DNA of 5,121 bases from a virus (lineage: Duplodnaviria > Heunggongvirae > Uroviricota > Caudoviricetes), in the IMG/VR virus record IMGVR_UViG_2671180669_000005, positions 1-5,121 of that record. One strand, written 5' to 3'. The translations under genes and the position numbers were made by a program. This document shows, piece by piece, positions 1 through 5,121 of the stretch (position 1 is its first letter; every line of letters starts with the position of its first letter). The notes below the pieces were generated by a model that was not told the origin of the DNA, made no database searches, and saw nothing but the letters and a program-made list of their open reading frames with translations.

Positions 1-130
1 TCAGGGTATAAGGGGTTATGGCCACCGGACTACCAAACGGCTGCCAGCCCTCTTTCAGTTTATGTGTCAGCTTTTCCGCAAGATCTGACGGCGACGCCGC
101 CCTGACAACATCATAGTGTTTAAATGCCAT
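1..130 (-). CDS. Small hypothetical phage protein, 5' part only (ORF continues past the left edge of the window)
   Basis: ATG at 130..128 opens a frame that stays open to position 2 (MAFKHYDVVRAASPSDLAEKLTHKLKEGWQPFGSPVAITPYTL...). A purine-rich GGTGGAAAG sits 4-12 nt upstream. It lies downstream, in the late direction, of the Q / methylase / tRNA block, where lambdoid phages carry small ORFs ahead of the lysis cassette. Not in the supplied ORF track because no stop lies in the window. Family not assigned. Confidence 0.4.
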   Translation of the reverse strand, partial: MAFKHYDVVRAASPSDLAEKLTHKLKEGWQPFGSPVAITPYTL

Positions 131-390: not shown

Positions 391-726
391 ATGAAGTGGA
401 TTGTGATTGATACAGTTATCCAGCCATCATGCGGAATATCTTTTTCAGTCATATGGAGTAAAATAAAATTAATAATCTGGTATCAATCGGATGCTTTCTT
501 ACCTCCTGAAAGTATATTTACACTGACTCACACAGGCATCATGCTCAATAACAAAGTGCTACCTGTAACCATTTACAACGTAGTACCATTCAATAAAACA
601 TTCTGGAATTTAATCAAAAACAGCCAGGAATGCCCTACAAATACAGATAACGTATTGAATGAATGCTTTAATAACCGTTGCACTCTGCAAATATGTCCTT
701 ATGGGCTAAAACAACAAAGTCCATAA
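391..726 (+). CDS. Hypothetical protein, AT-rich moron-like ORF (111 aa, 7 Cys, rich in I/N/K)
   Basis: Complete ORF with AGGA 6 nt upstream of the ATG (381-384). GC content is visibly lower than the flanking phage genes. It is opposite in orientation to the late operon and lies between the tRNA block and the downstream late genes, the slot where lambdoid phages carry morons. No recognisable motif; could still be a chance ORF in AT-rich DNA. Confidence 0.35.
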
Positions 727-746
727 GGAGTTTACTCACATCTGAC

Positions 747-782
747 AAAATCAATATAAACAGCCCCTCCGGAGAGGGGCTG
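747..782 (-). terminator. Rho-independent terminator candidate (9-bp perfect stem CAGCCCCTC / GAGGGGCTG, 4-nt loop)
   Basis: Perfect inverted repeat at 761-769 / 774-782 with loop CGGA. On the minus strand the hairpin is followed by TTTATATTGATTTTG (U-rich). On the plus strand the hairpin is followed by GAGAGTGG, so it is oriented for minus-strand transcripts, i.e. the tRNA cluster. Confidence 0.5.
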
Positions 783-1017
783 GAGAGTGGCGCTATGTGC
801 CATTGCATGGTGCCGGGTGCCTCCCGGTGAATTCAGTACCAGCACCTGAATCCGCGATTATCCCATATACCTACTCGCTGATTGCCCCTCCGCACAGGGG
901 GATTCACCATGCCAGTTTCTTTTAACAAACTCCCCGCAAACCAGACAACAGTCAACCGCCTGAATTGTGAGACATTTAAAAAAAAGGCCCACAAAAGCGA
1001 GCCAGGGAAAATAAGTG

Positions 1018-1094
1018 TGGCGCGTTGTACTGGATTCGAACCAGTGACCGATTGCTTAGAAGGCAATTGCTCTGTCCGGCTGAGCTAACAACGC
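1018..1094 (-). tRNA. tRNA-Arg (anticodon TCT, reads AGA/AGG)
   Basis: Reverse complement folds as a cloverleaf: acceptor GCGTTGT/ACAACGC, D-stem GCTC/GAGC, anticodon stem ATTGC/GCAAT with loop CTTCTAA, T-arm ACTGG-TTCGAAT-CCAGT, discriminator G, encoded CCA. 77 nt. Comparable to the rare-codon tRNA triplet (ileZ-argN-argO) between Q and stx in 933W-type phages (from memory). Confidence 0.85.
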
Positions 1095-1107
1095 ATGATG
1101 CAGATAA

Positions 1108-1184
1108 TGGACCGCCATCGGGGACTTGAACCCCGCGCAACCAGCTTCGAAGGCTGGCGCTCTTTCCTGATGAGCTAATGGCGG
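1108..1184 (-). tRNA. tRNA-Arg (anticodon TCG, reads CGA)
   Basis: Reverse complement: acceptor CCGCCAT/ATGGCGG (7 perfect pairs), D-stem GCTC/GAGC, anticodon stem CCAGC/GCTGG with loop CTTCGAA, T-arm CGGGG-TTCAAGT-CCCCG, discriminator T, encoded CCA. 77 nt. C1 at the 5' end is unusual but all four stems are perfect. Confidence 0.75.
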
Positions 1185-1191
1185 TATGTGA

Positions 1192-1267
1192 TGGTGGCCC
1201 TTGCTGGATTTGAACCAGCGACCTGGCGATTATGAGTCGCTCGCTCTCACCACTGAGCTAAAGGGCC
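1192..1267 (-). tRNA. tRNA with CAT anticodon (Ile2-lysidine type or Met; ileZ-like)
   Basis: Reverse complement: acceptor GGCCCTT/AAGGGCC, D-arm TAGCTCAGTGGTGAGAGC, anticodon loop CTCATAA, T-arm GCTGG-TTCAAAT-CCAGC, discriminator A, encoded CCA. 76 nt. Ile versus Met cannot be decided from sequence alone. Confidence 0.8.
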
Positions 1268-1316: not shown

Positions 1317-2366
1317 TCAAACGATTAAATCCTGAACTTCCCTGACTGTCTGCTCAAAACGTCCGGTCTCCAGTTCAACGCCAATCGCACGACGCCCGAG
1401 CGCCAGTGCCGCTTTTACCGTTGAACCTGAGCCCATAAAAAAATCTGCAACCAGGTCTCCCGGACGACTGCTTGCGCTGATTATCTGCTGCAGCATTTCT
1501 GCCGGTTTTTCGCACGGATGTTTCCCGGGATAGAACTGCACCGGTTTATGTGTCCACACATCCGTGTACGGCACCTGCGCCGTCACACCAAAATACCGCC
1601 GCAGATGCTTATATTCACTCTGCAGCTCCACATACTGCCGGTTCAGTGACGTATACGTATCCACCAGCTGGTGGTGGGGCTTTTCCAGTTCACCGCGCTG
1701 ATGTTTCTCTTCTGCCACCCGGGCAAACAGCGACTGTAATTTCAGATAATCGCTTTCGTTCGGTAGCTGCCACTGACTGGCACTGAACCAGTGCGACACC
1801 ATGTTTTTCTTTCCTGTGGCATCTGCAATCTGTTTTGCCGTTATCCCCAGGGCAGCTCGCGCATCACGAAAGTAAGAAATCAGCGGGGCCATCACATGCT
1901 GTTTCAGTGCACTGCCCTTCGCCGCATACCCGGCATCTTTCGGACGATACGGCCCCTGATAATGTTCCGCGAACAGAATGCGCTCTGTGGCGGGGAAATA
2001 CGCCCGCAGGCTTTCCTTGTTGCATCCGTTCCAGCGTCCGGACGGCTTCGCCCAGATAATATGGTTCAGCACACTGAAGCGTTCACGCATCATGATTTCG
2101 ATATCAGATGCCAGGCGATGACCACAGAACAGGTAAAGACTTCCGGCAGGTTTCAGCACCCGCCAGAACTGCGCCAGACACTGGTCCAGCCACTTCAGGT
2201 AATCATCGTCGCCCTTCCACTGGTTATCCCAGCCCTCAGGCTTCACTTTAAAGTACGGCGGGTCCGTGACTATCAGGTCAACAGAATTTTCGGGTAACGA
2301 CCGGATAAATTCCAGGCAGTCGGCGTTGATTAACTCACAACTGGATATTTTTACAGTATTAAGCAT
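1317..2366 (-). CDS. Beta-class N6-adenine (possibly N4-cytosine) DNA methyltransferase, CcrM-like fold, no cognate restriction gene in the window (apparent orphan)
   Basis: 349-aa ORF. N-terminal motif IV SVDLIVTDPPY with the preceding LINADCLEFIRSLPENSVDL closely resembling the CcrM N-terminus (from memory). HPCEKP is the beta-class HPxxKP motif. C-terminal AdoMet motif I DLVADFFMGSGST. Motif order IV then I defines the beta class. The central segment LGITAKQIADATGKKNMVSHW looks like a helix-turn-helix insertion. No Shine-Dalgarno is evident upstream of the ATG. Confidence 0.9.
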   Translation of the reverse strand: MLNTVKISSCELINADCLEFIRSLPENSVDLIVTDPPYFKVKPEGWDNQWKGDDDYLKWLDQCLAQFWRVLKPAGSLYLFCGHRLASDIEIMMRERFSVLNHIIWAKPSGRWNGCNKESLRAYFPATERILFAEHYQGPYRPKDAGYAAKGSALKQHVMAPLISYFRDARAALGITAKQIADATGKKNMVSHWFSASQWQLPNESDYLKLQSLFARVAEEKHQRGELEKPHHQLVDTYTSLNRQYVELQSEYKHLRRYFGVTAQVPYTDVWTHKPVQFYPGKHPCEKPAEMLQQIISASSRPGDLVADFFMGSGSTVKAALALGRRAIGVELETGRFEQTVREVQDLIV

Positions 2367-2458
2367 GGATCATTAAGCCTGTCTCTGATAGGCTCATTCT
2401 GCTTTTGCGCAAAGCAGTGGGCCTGAGGTTTGCTTGTGAACCCAACGCATGAGCAGAT

Positions 2459-2489
2459 GGCTGGTGGGTGCCCCTAACACCCACCAGCC
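2459..2489 (-). other. 12-bp perfect inverted repeat / stem-loop in the methyltransferase leader (copy 1)
   Basis: GGCTGGTGGGTG (2459-2470), 7-nt spacer, CACCCACCAGCC (2478-2489). No U-tract on either strand, so it is not an intrinsic terminator. Candidate RNA structure or a dimeric-protein operator. Confidence 0.5.
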
Positions 2490-2502
2490 GCCCATTTACC
2501 AC

Positions 2503-2530
2503 AAATAAAAAAGCCTTCACTGCGGAAGGC
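2503..2530 (-). terminator. Rho-independent terminator at the 3' end of the winged-helix gene (copy 1)
   Basis: Minus strand reads GCCTTC-CGCAGT-GAAGGC followed by TTTTTTATTTG. The gene's TGA stop lies inside the hairpin. Confidence 0.6.
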
Positions 2531-2714
2531 GTCTGTAACAACCGAACTGATAGTCTGCCAGACCCGCCATAACCAGCTGGGTCAGTATTAACTGGCAGCG
2601 TTCGCGTGAAAGGTAAGTATTCTGCGCTATCTCCCCGACTGTCGCCGGTTCGGTAACGCTTAATTCATTAAACACCACTCTGGCGGTTTCTGTCATATCC
2701 TGCTGTTTTAGCAT
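2517..2714 (-). CDS. Small winged-helix / HTH protein (65 aa), PapI/FaeA-like architecture (tentative), copy 1
   Basis: Encodes the same 65 aa as copy 2 (MLKQQDMTETARVVFNELSVTEPATVGEIAQNTYLSRERCQLILTQLVMAGLADYQFGCYRRLPQ). Start placed at ATG 2714..2712, which has AGGGA about 8 nt upstream. The supplied 94-aa ORF (2517..2801) is an upstream frame extension created by a 2-nt indel and is probably not translated. Confidence 0.55.
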   Translation of the reverse strand: MLKQQDMTETARVVFNELSVTEPATVGEIAQNTYLSRERCQLILTQLVMAGLADYQFGCYRRLPQ

Positions 2715-2836
2715 GTCTTTTTCCCTTTTCCGGTTAACGTGACACACCAATAACTCTTGTCGAAAAAGCCAGCAAGCTGAAAGACAGGTATTCACCGCCA
2801 CCAGCGCGTTTACTGTACTGACGCGATTTCAGTCAT

Positions 2837-2860
2837 AAAAAACCCGCCAGGCGGCGGGGT
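2837..2860 (-). terminator. tR'-like intrinsic terminator (copy 1)
   Basis: Minus strand reads CCCGCC-GCCT-GGCGGG followed by TTTTTT. About 40 nt downstream of the AACGAT pause element of PR' copy 1. Confidence 0.6.
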
Positions 2861-2895
2861 GTAAAAAATCTTCTAACGTCAGGCATAAAACGCCC

Positions 2896-2935
2896 ATCGT
2901 TAGAGCAAATTTACCACAGATTCGGGAAAAATCAA
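2896..2935 (-). promoter_or_regulatory. PR'-like late promoter with qut-type pause element (copy 1)
   Basis: Minus strand: -35 TTGATT (2935..2930), 16-nt spacer, extended -10 TGgTAAATT (-10 at 2913..2908), then tgctct AACGATGGGCG (AACGAT at 2901..2896). The -10 TAAATT and downstream AACGATGGG match the lambda PR'/qut arrangement as I recall it. Confidence 0.55.
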
Positions 2936-2940
2936 CAACA

Positions 2941-3359
2941 CTATCGCGTTACCCTCTTTAACTGCCGCTCCGCCCATGCCTCTTCAATGTCAAACCGAAC
3001 CACCAACGTATCGTAAAAGCGTTTCACTGATTTTTTCCACGTATCAAGCGTGATAGCACTCGTCACTTTGCATATGGCATTAAATGCCTCCGTTGATGGC
3101 AGCCTTTCACAGCCACGACCACCACAACGCTGGCAGTCTCTGATAACAGGCATACCACGTTTTACCGACTCTTCACGATGAATGGCGACACCACGCCCAC
3201 GGCAATCCTTACAGGCGGTGGAAACCTCACCCTTTCCGCCACACTCCGGACAGGCAACTTTTACCACCTCCCGATTTTTTTTCCATTCTTCCCAGTAAGA
3301 CGGATACACACCTTTCGTACACTTTGCCCATACCGGCGGCTTACCATCCGGATACTGGA
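2941..3359 (-). pseudogene. Q' : 3' fragment of an antiterminator Q gene (about 139 codons), lacking the N-terminal half
   Basis: Frame ends at TAG 2943..2941 and aligns to Q residues from QYPDGKPPVW to the C-terminal VTR, with about 14 aa substitutions concentrated in the last ~50 residues. It begins at the duplication junction with no ATG (the supplied ORF starts at a TTG at 3363). The duplicated methyltransferase ATG (3389..3387) reads into it out of frame, giving a 42-aa chimeric ORF (3261..3389). Confidence 0.65.
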
Positions 3360-3481
3360 ACAACTGGATATTTTTACAGTATTAAGCATGGATCATTAAG
3401 CCTGTCTCTGATAGGCTCATTCTGCTTTTGCGCAAAGCAGTGGGCCTGAGGTTTGCTTGTGAACCCAACGCATGAGCAGAT

Positions 3482-3512
3482 GGCTGGTGGGTGCCCCTAA
3501 CACCCACCAGCC
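3482..3512 (-). other. 12-bp perfect inverted repeat / stem-loop (copy 2)
   Basis: Identical to 2459-2489: GGCTGGTGGGTG, 7-nt spacer, CACCCACCAGCC. Confidence 0.5.
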
Positions 3513-3525
3513 GCCCATTTACCAC

Positions 3526-3553
3526 AAATAAAAAAGCCTTCACTGCGGAAGGC
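3526..3553 (-). terminator. Rho-independent terminator at the 3' end of the winged-helix gene (copy 2)
   Basis: Same hairpin GCCTTC-CGCAGT-GAAGGC plus TTTTTTATTTG on the minus strand; the stop codon is in the loop. Confidence 0.6.
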
Positions 3554-3737
3554 GTCTGTAACAACCGAACTGATAGTCTGCCAGACCCGCCATAACCAGC
3601 TGGGTCAGTATTAACTGGCAGCGTTCGCGTGAAAGGTAAGTATTCTGCGCTATCTCCCCGACTGTCGCCGGTTCGGTAACGCTTAATTCATTAAACACCA
3701 CTCTGGCGGTTTCTGTCATATCCTGCTGTTTTAGCAT
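3540..3737 (-). CDS. Small winged-helix / HTH protein (65 aa), PapI/FaeA-like architecture (tentative), copy 2
   Basis: ORF with AAGGA 6 nt upstream of the ATG. Predicted helix - turn (EPATVGEIAQNT) - recognition helix (RERCQLILTQLVMAGL), consistent with a small winged-helix regulator. The EPxT...IA...LS...LLT...G spacing resembles PapI/FaeA as I recall it. Protein is identical in both copies while the upstream non-coding DNA carries an indel. Confidence 0.6.
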   Translation of the reverse strand: MLKQQDMTETARVVFNELSVTEPATVGEIAQNTYLSRERCQLILTQLVMAGLADYQFGCYRRLPQ

Positions 3738-3857
3738 GTCTTTTCCTTTTCCGGTTAACGTGACACACCAATAACTCTTGTCGAAAAAGCCAGCAAGCTG
3801 AAAGACAGGTATTCACCGCCACCAGCGCGTTTACTGTACTGACGCGATTTCAGTCAT

Positions 3858-3880
3858 AAAAAACCCGCTCGGCGGCGGGT
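3858..3880 (-). terminator. tR'-like intrinsic terminator (copy 2)
   Basis: Minus strand reads CCCGC-CGCCGA-GCGGG followed by TTTTTT. Shorter stem than copy 1. Confidence 0.55.
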
Positions 3881-3916
3881 TGTAGAAACTCTTCTAACGT
3901 CAGGCATAAAACGCCC

Positions 3917-3956
3917 ATCGTTATGACGAATTTACCACAGATTCCGGAAAAATCAA
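3917..3956 (-). promoter_or_regulatory. PR'-like late promoter with qut-type pause element, immediately downstream of Q (copy 2)
   Basis: Minus strand: -35 TTGATT (3956..3951), 16-nt spacer, TGgTAAATT (-10 at 3934..3929), cgtcat AACGATGGGCG (AACGAT at 3922..3917). Starts 6 nt after the Q stop codon. Confidence 0.6.
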
Positions 3957-3961
3957 CCTTG

Positions 3962-4783
3962 TTACCTAGTTACCTTTTTTAACTGCCGCTCAGCCCATGC
4001 TTCTTCAATATCAAACCGGGTCACCAGCGCATCATAAAATTTCTTAACTGTTTTTTCCCATGACGCGCGTGTTATCTGGTTTGTCACCTCGCATATAGCA
4101 TTAAATGCCTCCGTTGATGGTAGTCTTTCATAGCCACGACCACCACAACGCTGGCAGTCTCTGATAACAGGCATACCACGTTTTACCGACTCTTCACGAT
4201 GAATGGCGACACCACGCCCACGGCAATCCTTACAGGCGGTGGAAACCTCACCCTTTCCGCCACACTCCGGACAGGCAACTTTTACCACCTCCCTGACTTT
4301 TTTCCATTCTTCCCAGTAAGACGGATACACACCTTTCGTACACTTTGCCCATACCGGCGGCTTACCATCCGGATACTGGATCTTGTTTGTAAAAACCTCG
4401 CTTTCAATAAATTTTTTTCCGTGACAGCAGGGGCACTGTTTTTTGCTCGCCGCGCTACGGGCATAATCTTCAAACGCATACGAAGCCATAATACGCATCA
4501 CTGCCGGTTTTATTTCTGCCGGGAGTTTTCTTAACGCCGCCACGCGATCACACCGACTGAGTGCATATTCTGTCAGCAATTCTGTTGCCCGCTCTCTGTC
4601 ATTCATACTAATGCCCATTTTCCCAAGGAACGCAGAAAACCCCATCTCAGCCCGATTCTGTGTCATGCCCTGCGCGGCCATCACATCAGTGATACTCAGC
4701 GCATCTTTCGACGTTGAGGCCGATGCATCAGTCAGGCCGGGGGATTTTGGGGAGTAGTATTTCGGTAAATCTTCCAGTTTCAT
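3962..4783 (-). CDS. Q: Late-gene antiterminator Q, lambda-Q family, with an enlarged zinc-binding region (four CxxCxGxG-type motifs)
   Basis: 273 aa. Shares with lambda Q (recalled sequence) SPKSP near the N-terminus, DVMAA.GM, YA..DY.RSAA, CxxCHG, C.RCxGxGY.R.PS, W..TVK..YDALV and a C-terminal VTR. Contains CPCCHGKK, CPECGGKG, CKDCRGRG and CQRCGGRG. Start ATG overlaps the rusA stop (ATGA). Followed directly by a PR'/qut-like promoter. Confidence 0.85.
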   Translation of the reverse strand: MKLEDLPKYYSPKSPGLTDASASTSKDALSITDVMAAQGMTQNRAEMGFSAFLGKMGISMNDRERATELLTEYALSRCDRVAALRKLPAEIKPAVMRIMASYAFEDYARSAASKKQCPCCHGKKFIESEVFTNKIQYPDGKPPVWAKCTKGVYPSYWEEWKKVREVVKVACPECGGKGEVSTACKDCRGRGVAIHREESVKRGMPVIRDCQRCGGRGYERLPSTEAFNAICEVTNQITRASWEKTVKKFYDALVTRFDIEEAWAERQLKKVTR

Positions 4784-5121
4784 TTTTTGACCTGCCCTTC
4801 AAGCATTATGGGGTAAATCTTCACCCCCAGACGTCCACCAGATACTGGCTGAGCACGAACGATATTGATTTCATCAAACTGCTCATCGTCCATTAGCAAC
4901 CCCGCATGCGTCAGCGCATCCAGCGGCGCTTTCAGAATATTGTCCAGGTCACGGCGGCGCTTATCCGGTGGTTCTGCAATAATTTTTATTGCCAACCTTC
5001 CGGACAGGCTTAATTTCAGCCGCTGCTGGCGAACAATAAGCGCCACTGCCCGGCGATAACGCTCCCCGGCTTTTGATACAAAATATGTGCTGCCACGACG
5101 ACGCCAGTAAGTGTTCACCGT
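4780..5121 (-). CDS. rusA: Holliday-junction resolvase RusA (N-terminal ~12-15 aa lie beyond the right edge)
   Basis: Frame is open to the window edge; the supplied start at 5118 is an internal GTG. Matches the recalled RusA sequence: YxxxRGxxxVSxxG near the N-terminus, catalytic-region DKRRRDLDN (RusA DRRRRDLDN), and GGRL near the C-terminus. Sits immediately upstream of Q as in lambdoid nin regions. Confidence 0.85.
   Translation of the reverse strand, partial: TVNTYWRRRGSTYFVSKAGERYRRAVALIVRQQRLKLSLSGRLAIKIIAEPPDKRRRDLDNILKAPLDALTHAGLLMDDEQFDEINIVRAQPVSGGRLGVKIYPIMLEGQVKK

Follow-up and report, generated by a model that had tools for sequence, protein, structure and literature searches.

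The analysed DNA, hereafter the window, is a stretch of 5,121 nucleotides that carries an intact gene for a 349-amino-acid β-class N6/N4 DNA methyltransferase (MTase) with a central helix-turn-helix (HTH) domain. Taken as a whole, it is very probably best explained as a phage late unit in which a non-specific adenine MTase of the M.EcoGII family is governed by the antiterminator Q and the late promoter PR′, provides anti-restriction methylation and is further controlled through an RNA leader.

The window is the whole of a short-read draft contig (CXEX01000233.1, assembly GCA_001261655.1) and probably represents the remnant of a Shigella sonnei prophage that may have lost its inducibility. All of its phage genes lie on the minus strand and an iraM-like gene lies on the plus strand. 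Outside the late control region, the following features were located.

4780-5118, minus strand: RusA.
1317-2366, minus strand: M.EcoGII-family β-class adenine MTase gene, 349 aa, ATG start, intact open reading frame (ORF).
1018-1267, minus strand: three tRNA genes with anticodons CAT, TCG and TCT, downstream of the MTase gene and co-directional with it.
752-941, minus strand: STnc100-type RNA, full-length match to Rfam RF02076 (132 bits against a gathering score of 47).
391-726, plus strand: iraM-like gene (NF007393, 162 bits against a cut-off of 121; phrog_4407).
2-130, minus strand: start of a DUF1737/NanS-p esterase gene.

The first tRNA gene (1192-1267, minus strand) was called Met (CAT) by ARAGORN, and the same gene in E. 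coli TUM10008 is annotated as tRNA-Ile in RefSeq, a call that presumably fits an ileZ-argN-argO-type cluster of Stx-like phages. The STnc100-type RNA is located downstream of the tRNA genes and ends at a terminator-like hairpin (761-782), and the IraM-type anti-adapter gene is AT-rich, moron-like cargo at the place where Stx phages carry stx.

An earlier note on this DNA had stated that the MTase has no restriction partner in the window, and we found no restriction endonuclease gene there or in five related loci. An adjacent cognate endonuclease, as in a type II restriction-modification system, was absent, the neighbours being Q, a 65-aa winged-HTH ORF, tRNA genes and lysis genes, and only methyltransferase models were matched when the window was run through PADLOC. 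In the five related loci, from E. coli, phage 1720a-02, Salmonella, Klebsiella and Erwinia, the MTase gene has Q on one side and, on the other, the lysis genes or else tRNA genes and, in 1720a-02, stx2 remains; the Q genes of these loci belong to three different Pfam families, and cargo genes on the opposite strand are sometimes inserted after Q in related loci. The nearest complete E. coli genomes matched at 98-98.6% over only ~4.1 kb, because they lack the internal repeat of the window. The late control region, including this repeat, is composed of the following features.

3962-4783, minus strand: intact lambda-type antiterminator Q, 273 aa, with an inserted zinc-finger segment.
3862-3956, minus strand: block with the Q-proximal copy of PR′ (motif at 3914-3934, −35 at 3951-3956).
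3862-3881, minus strand: tR′ terminator, Q-proximal copy.
3540-3737, minus strand: 65-aa winged-helix ORF, Q-proximal copy.
3536-3553, minus strand: terminator after the Q-proximal 65-aa ORF.
3360-3523, minus strand: duplicate of the leader (3390-3523) and of the first 30 nt of the MTase gene (3360-3389), orphaned and out of frame with Q′.
2941-3359, minus strand: truncated remnant Q′, comprising the last 139 codons of a second Q allele that has diverged (PF03589, E 5.9e-28).
2893-2935, minus strand: MTase-proximal copy of PR′, with −35 TTGATT at 2930-2935, extended −10 TGgTAAATT ending at 2908 and the −10-like pause element AACGAT at 2896-2901.
2843-2858, minus strand: tR′-like intrinsic terminator CCCGCCGCCTGGCGGG followed by T6, ~45-65 nt downstream of the predicted PR′ start.
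2517-2714, minus strand: 65-aa winged-helix ORF, MTase-proximal copy ('TrmB family' in NCBI names, phrog_331).
2513-2530, minus strand: intrinsic terminator-like hairpin GCCTTCCGCAGTGAAGGC followed by T6, at the end of the 65-aa ORF and just upstream of the leader.
2367-2500, minus strand: structured 5′ leader RNA, ~135 nt, up to the MTase start codon.

The Q protein of the window matched the lambda Q structures 7ubm (E 4.9e-41) and 4mo1. The layout TTGATT-16 nt-TG-G-TAAATT-6 nt-AACGATGGG was found twice, once just downstream of Q and once after the truncated Q′; at the corresponding place after its own Q, phage lambda has TTGACT-17 nt-TAAATT-6 nt-AACGATGGG, which is PR′ with its sigma-dependent pause element. 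The chance expectation of TAAATT-N6-AACGATGGG in the window, estimated from shuffles, was 0.00. A generic consensus promoter scan of the window returned no sigma-70 site and did not flag PR′; the PR′ of the window was recognized through its similarity to lambda. Placement of the MTase downstream of PR′, as the earlier note had it, was thereby confirmed, the upstream region holding two PR′ copies with the motif common to lambda, which result from a local duplication. Since a strong intrinsic terminator follows PR′ and another one the 65-aa ORF, PR′ transcripts would need to read through at least two terminators to reach the MTase gene. This arrangement supports a Q-dependent late expression of the MTase, and the read-through requirement would fit both the Q dependence and the silence of M.EcoGII in lysogens.

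The two PR′-tR′ units (2836-2901 and 3860-3922, minus strand) should each also yield a terminated short transcript of ~66 nt, comparable to StxS, the PR′-terminated small RNA of Stx phages (PMC7547250). Another prophage sRNA, HnrS, is 66 nt long (PMC13502914); we do not claim that the RNA of the window is HnrS, because CUUCU for pairing with the AGAAG site of hha is absent from its PR′-tR′ RNA.

The 65-aa ORF gave a weak TrmB match (E 0.0026), and in STEC papers the pair is named 'TrmB family regulator and DNA methylase' and lies between Q and stx. A homologue sits 90-200 nt upstream of the MTase gene in 54 of 78 genome loci (~70%) and in 109 of 120 viral contigs (~90%). In the window, two nucleotides (2722-2723) are inserted just before the ATG of the MTase-proximal copy. 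Kinship of this ORF with lambda orf-64 was also considered and discarded, as the two showed no similarity.

The internal repeat consists of two tandem copies (2337-3359 and 3360-4380) at a spacing of 1,023 bp. At the junction (3359/3360), the two genes meet out of frame, nucleotide 30 of the MTase gene against Q codon 135. Over 385 nt, which comprise the 65-aa ORF, the leader and the 5′ end of the MTase gene, the copies are identical; beyond this stretch they differ at 59 positions clustered in 2848-3110 (terminator loop, PR′ and Q 3′ end). This divergence is patchy, which argues that two related prophages recombined and against a recent duplication; the duplication may also be a short-read assembly path through two loci. 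The junction was absent from 5,426 complete E. coli genomes, and in a sister assembly just one copy of the block comes after this same Q. An independent tandem duplication of ~3 kb was observed in a viral contig (IMGVR_UViG_2698536677_000006, 183-732 versus 3168-3717), where the 65-aa ORF and the leader are each present in a second copy, together with a 53-aa fragment of the MTase 5′ end, suggesting that the region is prone to such rearrangements. Moreover, 'partial' Q proteins of 134 aa in the database, from 18 contigs, stop exactly at the residue from which Q′ is preserved (Q codon 134/135, near window position 4380), which may be a mosaic or repeat boundary where assemblies break.

Such rearrangement bears on the reading that the MTase gene in this genome is an unexpressed relic of a decayed prophage and no longer serves phage or host. 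Defective prophages are frequent in Shigella, and, besides the truncated Q′ and the duplicated promoter block upstream of the gene, this exact Q protein turned up in no records other than those of Shigella sonnei and short contigs. We nevertheless regard this reading as unlikely, considering that the MTase ORF is intact, that at least 1000 public contigs, as well as Escherichia albertii, carry the identical protein, and that the window retains an intact Q along with the leader and the two copies of PR′.

Within the MTase gene, the catalytic motifs could be read in the sequence, and the target-recognition domain (TRD) was delimited as follows.

2253-2264, minus strand (residues 35-38): DPPY.
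About 1656-1889, minus strand: TRD.
1788-1850, minus strand: HTH.
1503-1520, minus strand (residues 283-288): HPCEKP.
1425-1439, minus strand (residues 310-314): FxGxG, here F-M-G-S-G.

Residues 29-340 matched Pfam PF01555 (N6_N4_Mtase, E 2.3e-44), and the motif order is that of the β-class, with DPPY N-terminal, the TRD central and HPxxKP and FxGxG C-terminal. The catalytic and SAM motifs, among them DPPY, HPCEKP and FMGSG, did not vary at all in a family alignment of 32 members. The assignment as an orphan β-class adenine MTase, proposed in the earlier note, is supported by this Pfam match, with the presence of the three motifs and with the lack of an endonuclease gene in the window. Its description of the catalytic core as 'CcrM-like' was valid at the level of the β-class fold only: the protein scored 72.3 bits against a cut-off of 830 with the NCBIfam CcrM equivalog NF050803, aligning well only at the SAM-binding end, and the C-terminal domain of CcrM is absent. 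Membership of the YhdJ type was rejected as well (NF008572, 112.8 bits against a cut-off of 292).

In sequence alignments, solved β-class enzymes matched residues 8-141 and 270-343 only, leaving roughly 130-165 central residues unmatched depending on the enzyme, ~90 more than the corresponding segment of M.BceJIV. A full-length AlphaFold2 model, built from a shallow alignment, had a pLDDT of 68, a moderate confidence at which we used it for secondary structure and core fold only. The top Foldseek matches of this model were all β-class enzymes (CcrM, M.BceJIV, a rotifer N4 cytosine methyltransferase, MboIIA and RsrI), and a model of the TRD matched XRE/C-protein HTH folds. M.EcoGII has been described from AlphaFold2 as a Rossmann domain (1-134 and 260-349) with a four-helix HTH TRD (160-237) and a charged linker (PMC11551740), and the model of the window MTase likewise has a helical HTH TRD (about residues 160-237) and a charged helical linker. 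Since the model reproduces the published M.EcoGII fold, the central segment is the TRD of the family plus its charged linker and not an extra insertion. The notion of a roughly 100-aa insertion with an HTH-like segment (LGITAKQIADATGKKNMVSHW, residues 173-193) was therefore fair as to size and as to the HTH fold, but the segment belongs to the family TRD.

The MTase and M.EcoGII are both 349 aa long and shared 331 of 350 aligned positions (~95%), a figure that is approximate because our copy of M.EcoGII was machine-read from the supplement of PMC11551740 and contains evident reading errors (NHHIWA, GRRRAIG); the true identity is probably slightly higher. About 15 substitutions are real, mostly at residues 148-263 (TRD and linker). 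One of them lies in the HTH at residue 191, which is Ser in the window MTase and Pro in M.EcoGII; Ser191 is the family consensus and is also found in the reconstructed ancestor Anc291, which is largely non-site-specific on RNA (PMC11551740). For comparison, M.EcoGI and M.EcoGII are identical at 333 of 349 positions, so that the window MTase is about equally distant from M.EcoGII, and the MTase gene of phage 1720a-02 is 95.4% identical to the window gene at the DNA level. The family has thousands of members across Enterobacterales, and the representatives of its 90% clusters are more distant from M.EcoGII than is the window protein; its very large size, with phage 1720a-02 among the members, has been reported (PMC5778455). 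Given this identity and the occurrence of the identical protein on so many contigs, the window MTase is, as judged by sequence, a member of the M.EcoGII family and an enzyme already known. The suggestion of a relaxed-specificity, M.EcoGII-type enzyme in the earlier note thus proved a good lead.

M.EcoGII, from a prophage of E. coli O104:H4 C227-11 (GenBank EGT69837.1), is a β-class enzyme that methylates adenine in any context (PMC5778455). Its nearest relative with proven site specificity, M.PflMI (CCANNNNNTGG), is only 27% identical to it (PMC11551740). Because the window MTase is so close to M.EcoGII and the site-specific relative so far from it, we strongly infer that the window allele would methylate adenines non-specifically, and the statement that specificity cannot be read from the sequence was too cautious. 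One could instead suppose that the substitutions in the HTH domain restore the recognition of a motif, making the enzyme sequence-specific or only partly relaxed; the differences from M.EcoGII do cluster in the TRD and linker, and M.PflMI is site-specific with a similar, HTH-type predicted TRD (PMC11551740). We consider this very unlikely, however, since M.PflMI lacks the charged linker that the window protein keeps (PMC11551740), since reconstructed ancestors more distant than the window protein are still largely non-site-specific on RNA (PMC11551740), and since homologues of 92-93% identity are entered as 'nonspecific' in REBASE-based tables (PMC6602927).

[quoted passage not shown]

The leader RNA was detected in 51 of ~78 species-level loci, including loci without the 65-aa ORF. 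Its nhmmer and covariance-model matches always adjoined the ATG of the MTase gene; the conserved stretch runs up to this start codon, and the structure always ends 9 nt before it. In a reverse search starting from the core motif of the leader, an MTase start was located 52-53 nt downstream in 117 of 120 viral contigs; two of the remaining contigs were cut and one had the gene deleted. The covariance model, comprising five helices with 34 pairs (a closing helix P0 around hairpins P1 and P2, followed by hairpins P3 and P4), gave 58 confident matches in genome, phage and window loci, including both copies of the window, and 102 when viral contigs were included. In Xenorhabdus, Photorhabdus and Erwinia loci it did not detect the leader, two marginal matches apart. 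A hairpin upstream of the leader is conserved in other genera, often without a T-run.

RNAalifold on a plain MAFFT alignment of the leader showed compensatory changes in 11 of 21 predicted pairs. In alignments fitted to the covariance model, where the counts lean towards the model because of that fitting, 96-97% of cells were paired versus 30-43% in slid controls, and 13-16 pairs had changed on both sides versus about 5 in shuffles. Most of this support is carried by P1 and P2, with one to three covarying pairs each in P0, P3 and P4, and the frequent G-U pairs in the alignments point to a sense-strand RNA. The minimum-free-energy fold of the single window sequence was unlike the comparative structure and far more stable than shuffles (z −4.35). 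A pseudoknot pairing the AUCA loop of P4 with UGAU (−9 to −6) was considered and rejected, as the loop often shows U-to-C changes and UGAU varies as well, in neither case with compensation. No recognizable Shine-Dalgarno sequence precedes the MTase ATG, and a conserved GATC occupies −8 to −5 of the start.

The sense strand of the leader had no Rfam match at E ≤ 0.1 in the window, nor at E ≤ 1 in three diverse loci, and together with the compensatory base changes this makes the leader a candidate new cis-regulatory RNA. A literature search for an RNA motif described upstream of these MTase genes found nothing. As to function, the most economical guess is that the leader controls how a harmful enzyme is translated or its stability. 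We give even chances to the idea that this undescribed leader of ~135 nt is a dedicated cis-regulatory gate, holding back the synthesis of a toxic genome-wide methylase until late infection; it might act by switching translation, by binding the RNA-binding enzyme for autoregulation or by sensing a ligand.

We propose the following course of events for the late unit. Enzymes of the M.EcoGII family are SAM-dependent, β-class and probably dimeric DNA adenine-N6 methyltransferases, whose central four-helix HTH domain and charged linker bind nucleic acid without reading its sequence, so that most adenines become m6A. In the lysogen, PR′ transcripts would stop at tR′ and at the second terminator after the 65-aa ORF, and the MTase, harmful if constitutive, would consequently stay off. 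Upon induction, Q would modify RNA polymerase at PR′, both terminators would be read through and the MTase would be made late. The structured leader before the Shine-Dalgarno-less start codon would probably add translational or RNA-stability control. Replicating phage DNA would then be heavily methylated before packaging, blunting restriction in the next host; such anti-restriction methylation of progeny DNA is plausible and was also proposed by the authors who described M.EcoGII (PMC5778455).

The enzyme itself adds nothing new, as M.EcoGII has been characterized, is sold as a reagent and is common in enterobacterial prophages. What is gained is a firm annotation of the MTase gene and of the elements that control it (lambda-type Q, PR′, tR′ and a second terminator), along with a conserved two-gene module, the 65-aa winged-helix ORF and the MTase gene, that opens the late operon in several genera. 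Only the candidate leader is potentially new; it is linked exclusively to M.EcoGII-type MTase genes across Enterobacterales and viral contigs. It could explain how phages control a harmful non-specific methylase, and it may matter for anyone expressing the enzyme.

Compared with known systems, the window MTase shares the Rossmann core with N-terminal DPPY and C-terminal FxGxG with CcrM (PDB 6PBD), M.BceJIV (8URK), M.RsrI (1EG2) and MboIIA (1G60), with Foldseek E values of 1e-14 to 1e-12, whereas its central domain is unrelated to those of these enzymes, which are sequence-specific. M.PflMI has a similar predicted overall structure including the HTH TRD, the charged linker being kept, of the two, only in the window protein. 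With M.EcoGII the window MTase has in common the motif order, the HTH TRD, the charged linker, the prophage location and the lack of a restriction partner, and differs in the substitutions described above and in the duplicated region upstream. The late control region resembles lambda Q/PR′/tR′ and StxS in its homologous Q, TAAATT, the AACGATGGG pause element and an intrinsic terminator that would give an RNA of ~66 nt; in contrast to lambda, Q has the inserted zinc-finger segment, and the 65-aa ORF, second terminator, leader and MTase gene lie between tR′ and the lysis genes. In phage 1720a-02, the MTase gene follows Q and a small ORF and precedes the stx2 remains (Stx2 A-subunit gene); unlike this phage and STEC prophages, the window has no stx downstream and carries there the tRNA genes, the STnc100-type RNA, the iraM-like gene and nanS-p.
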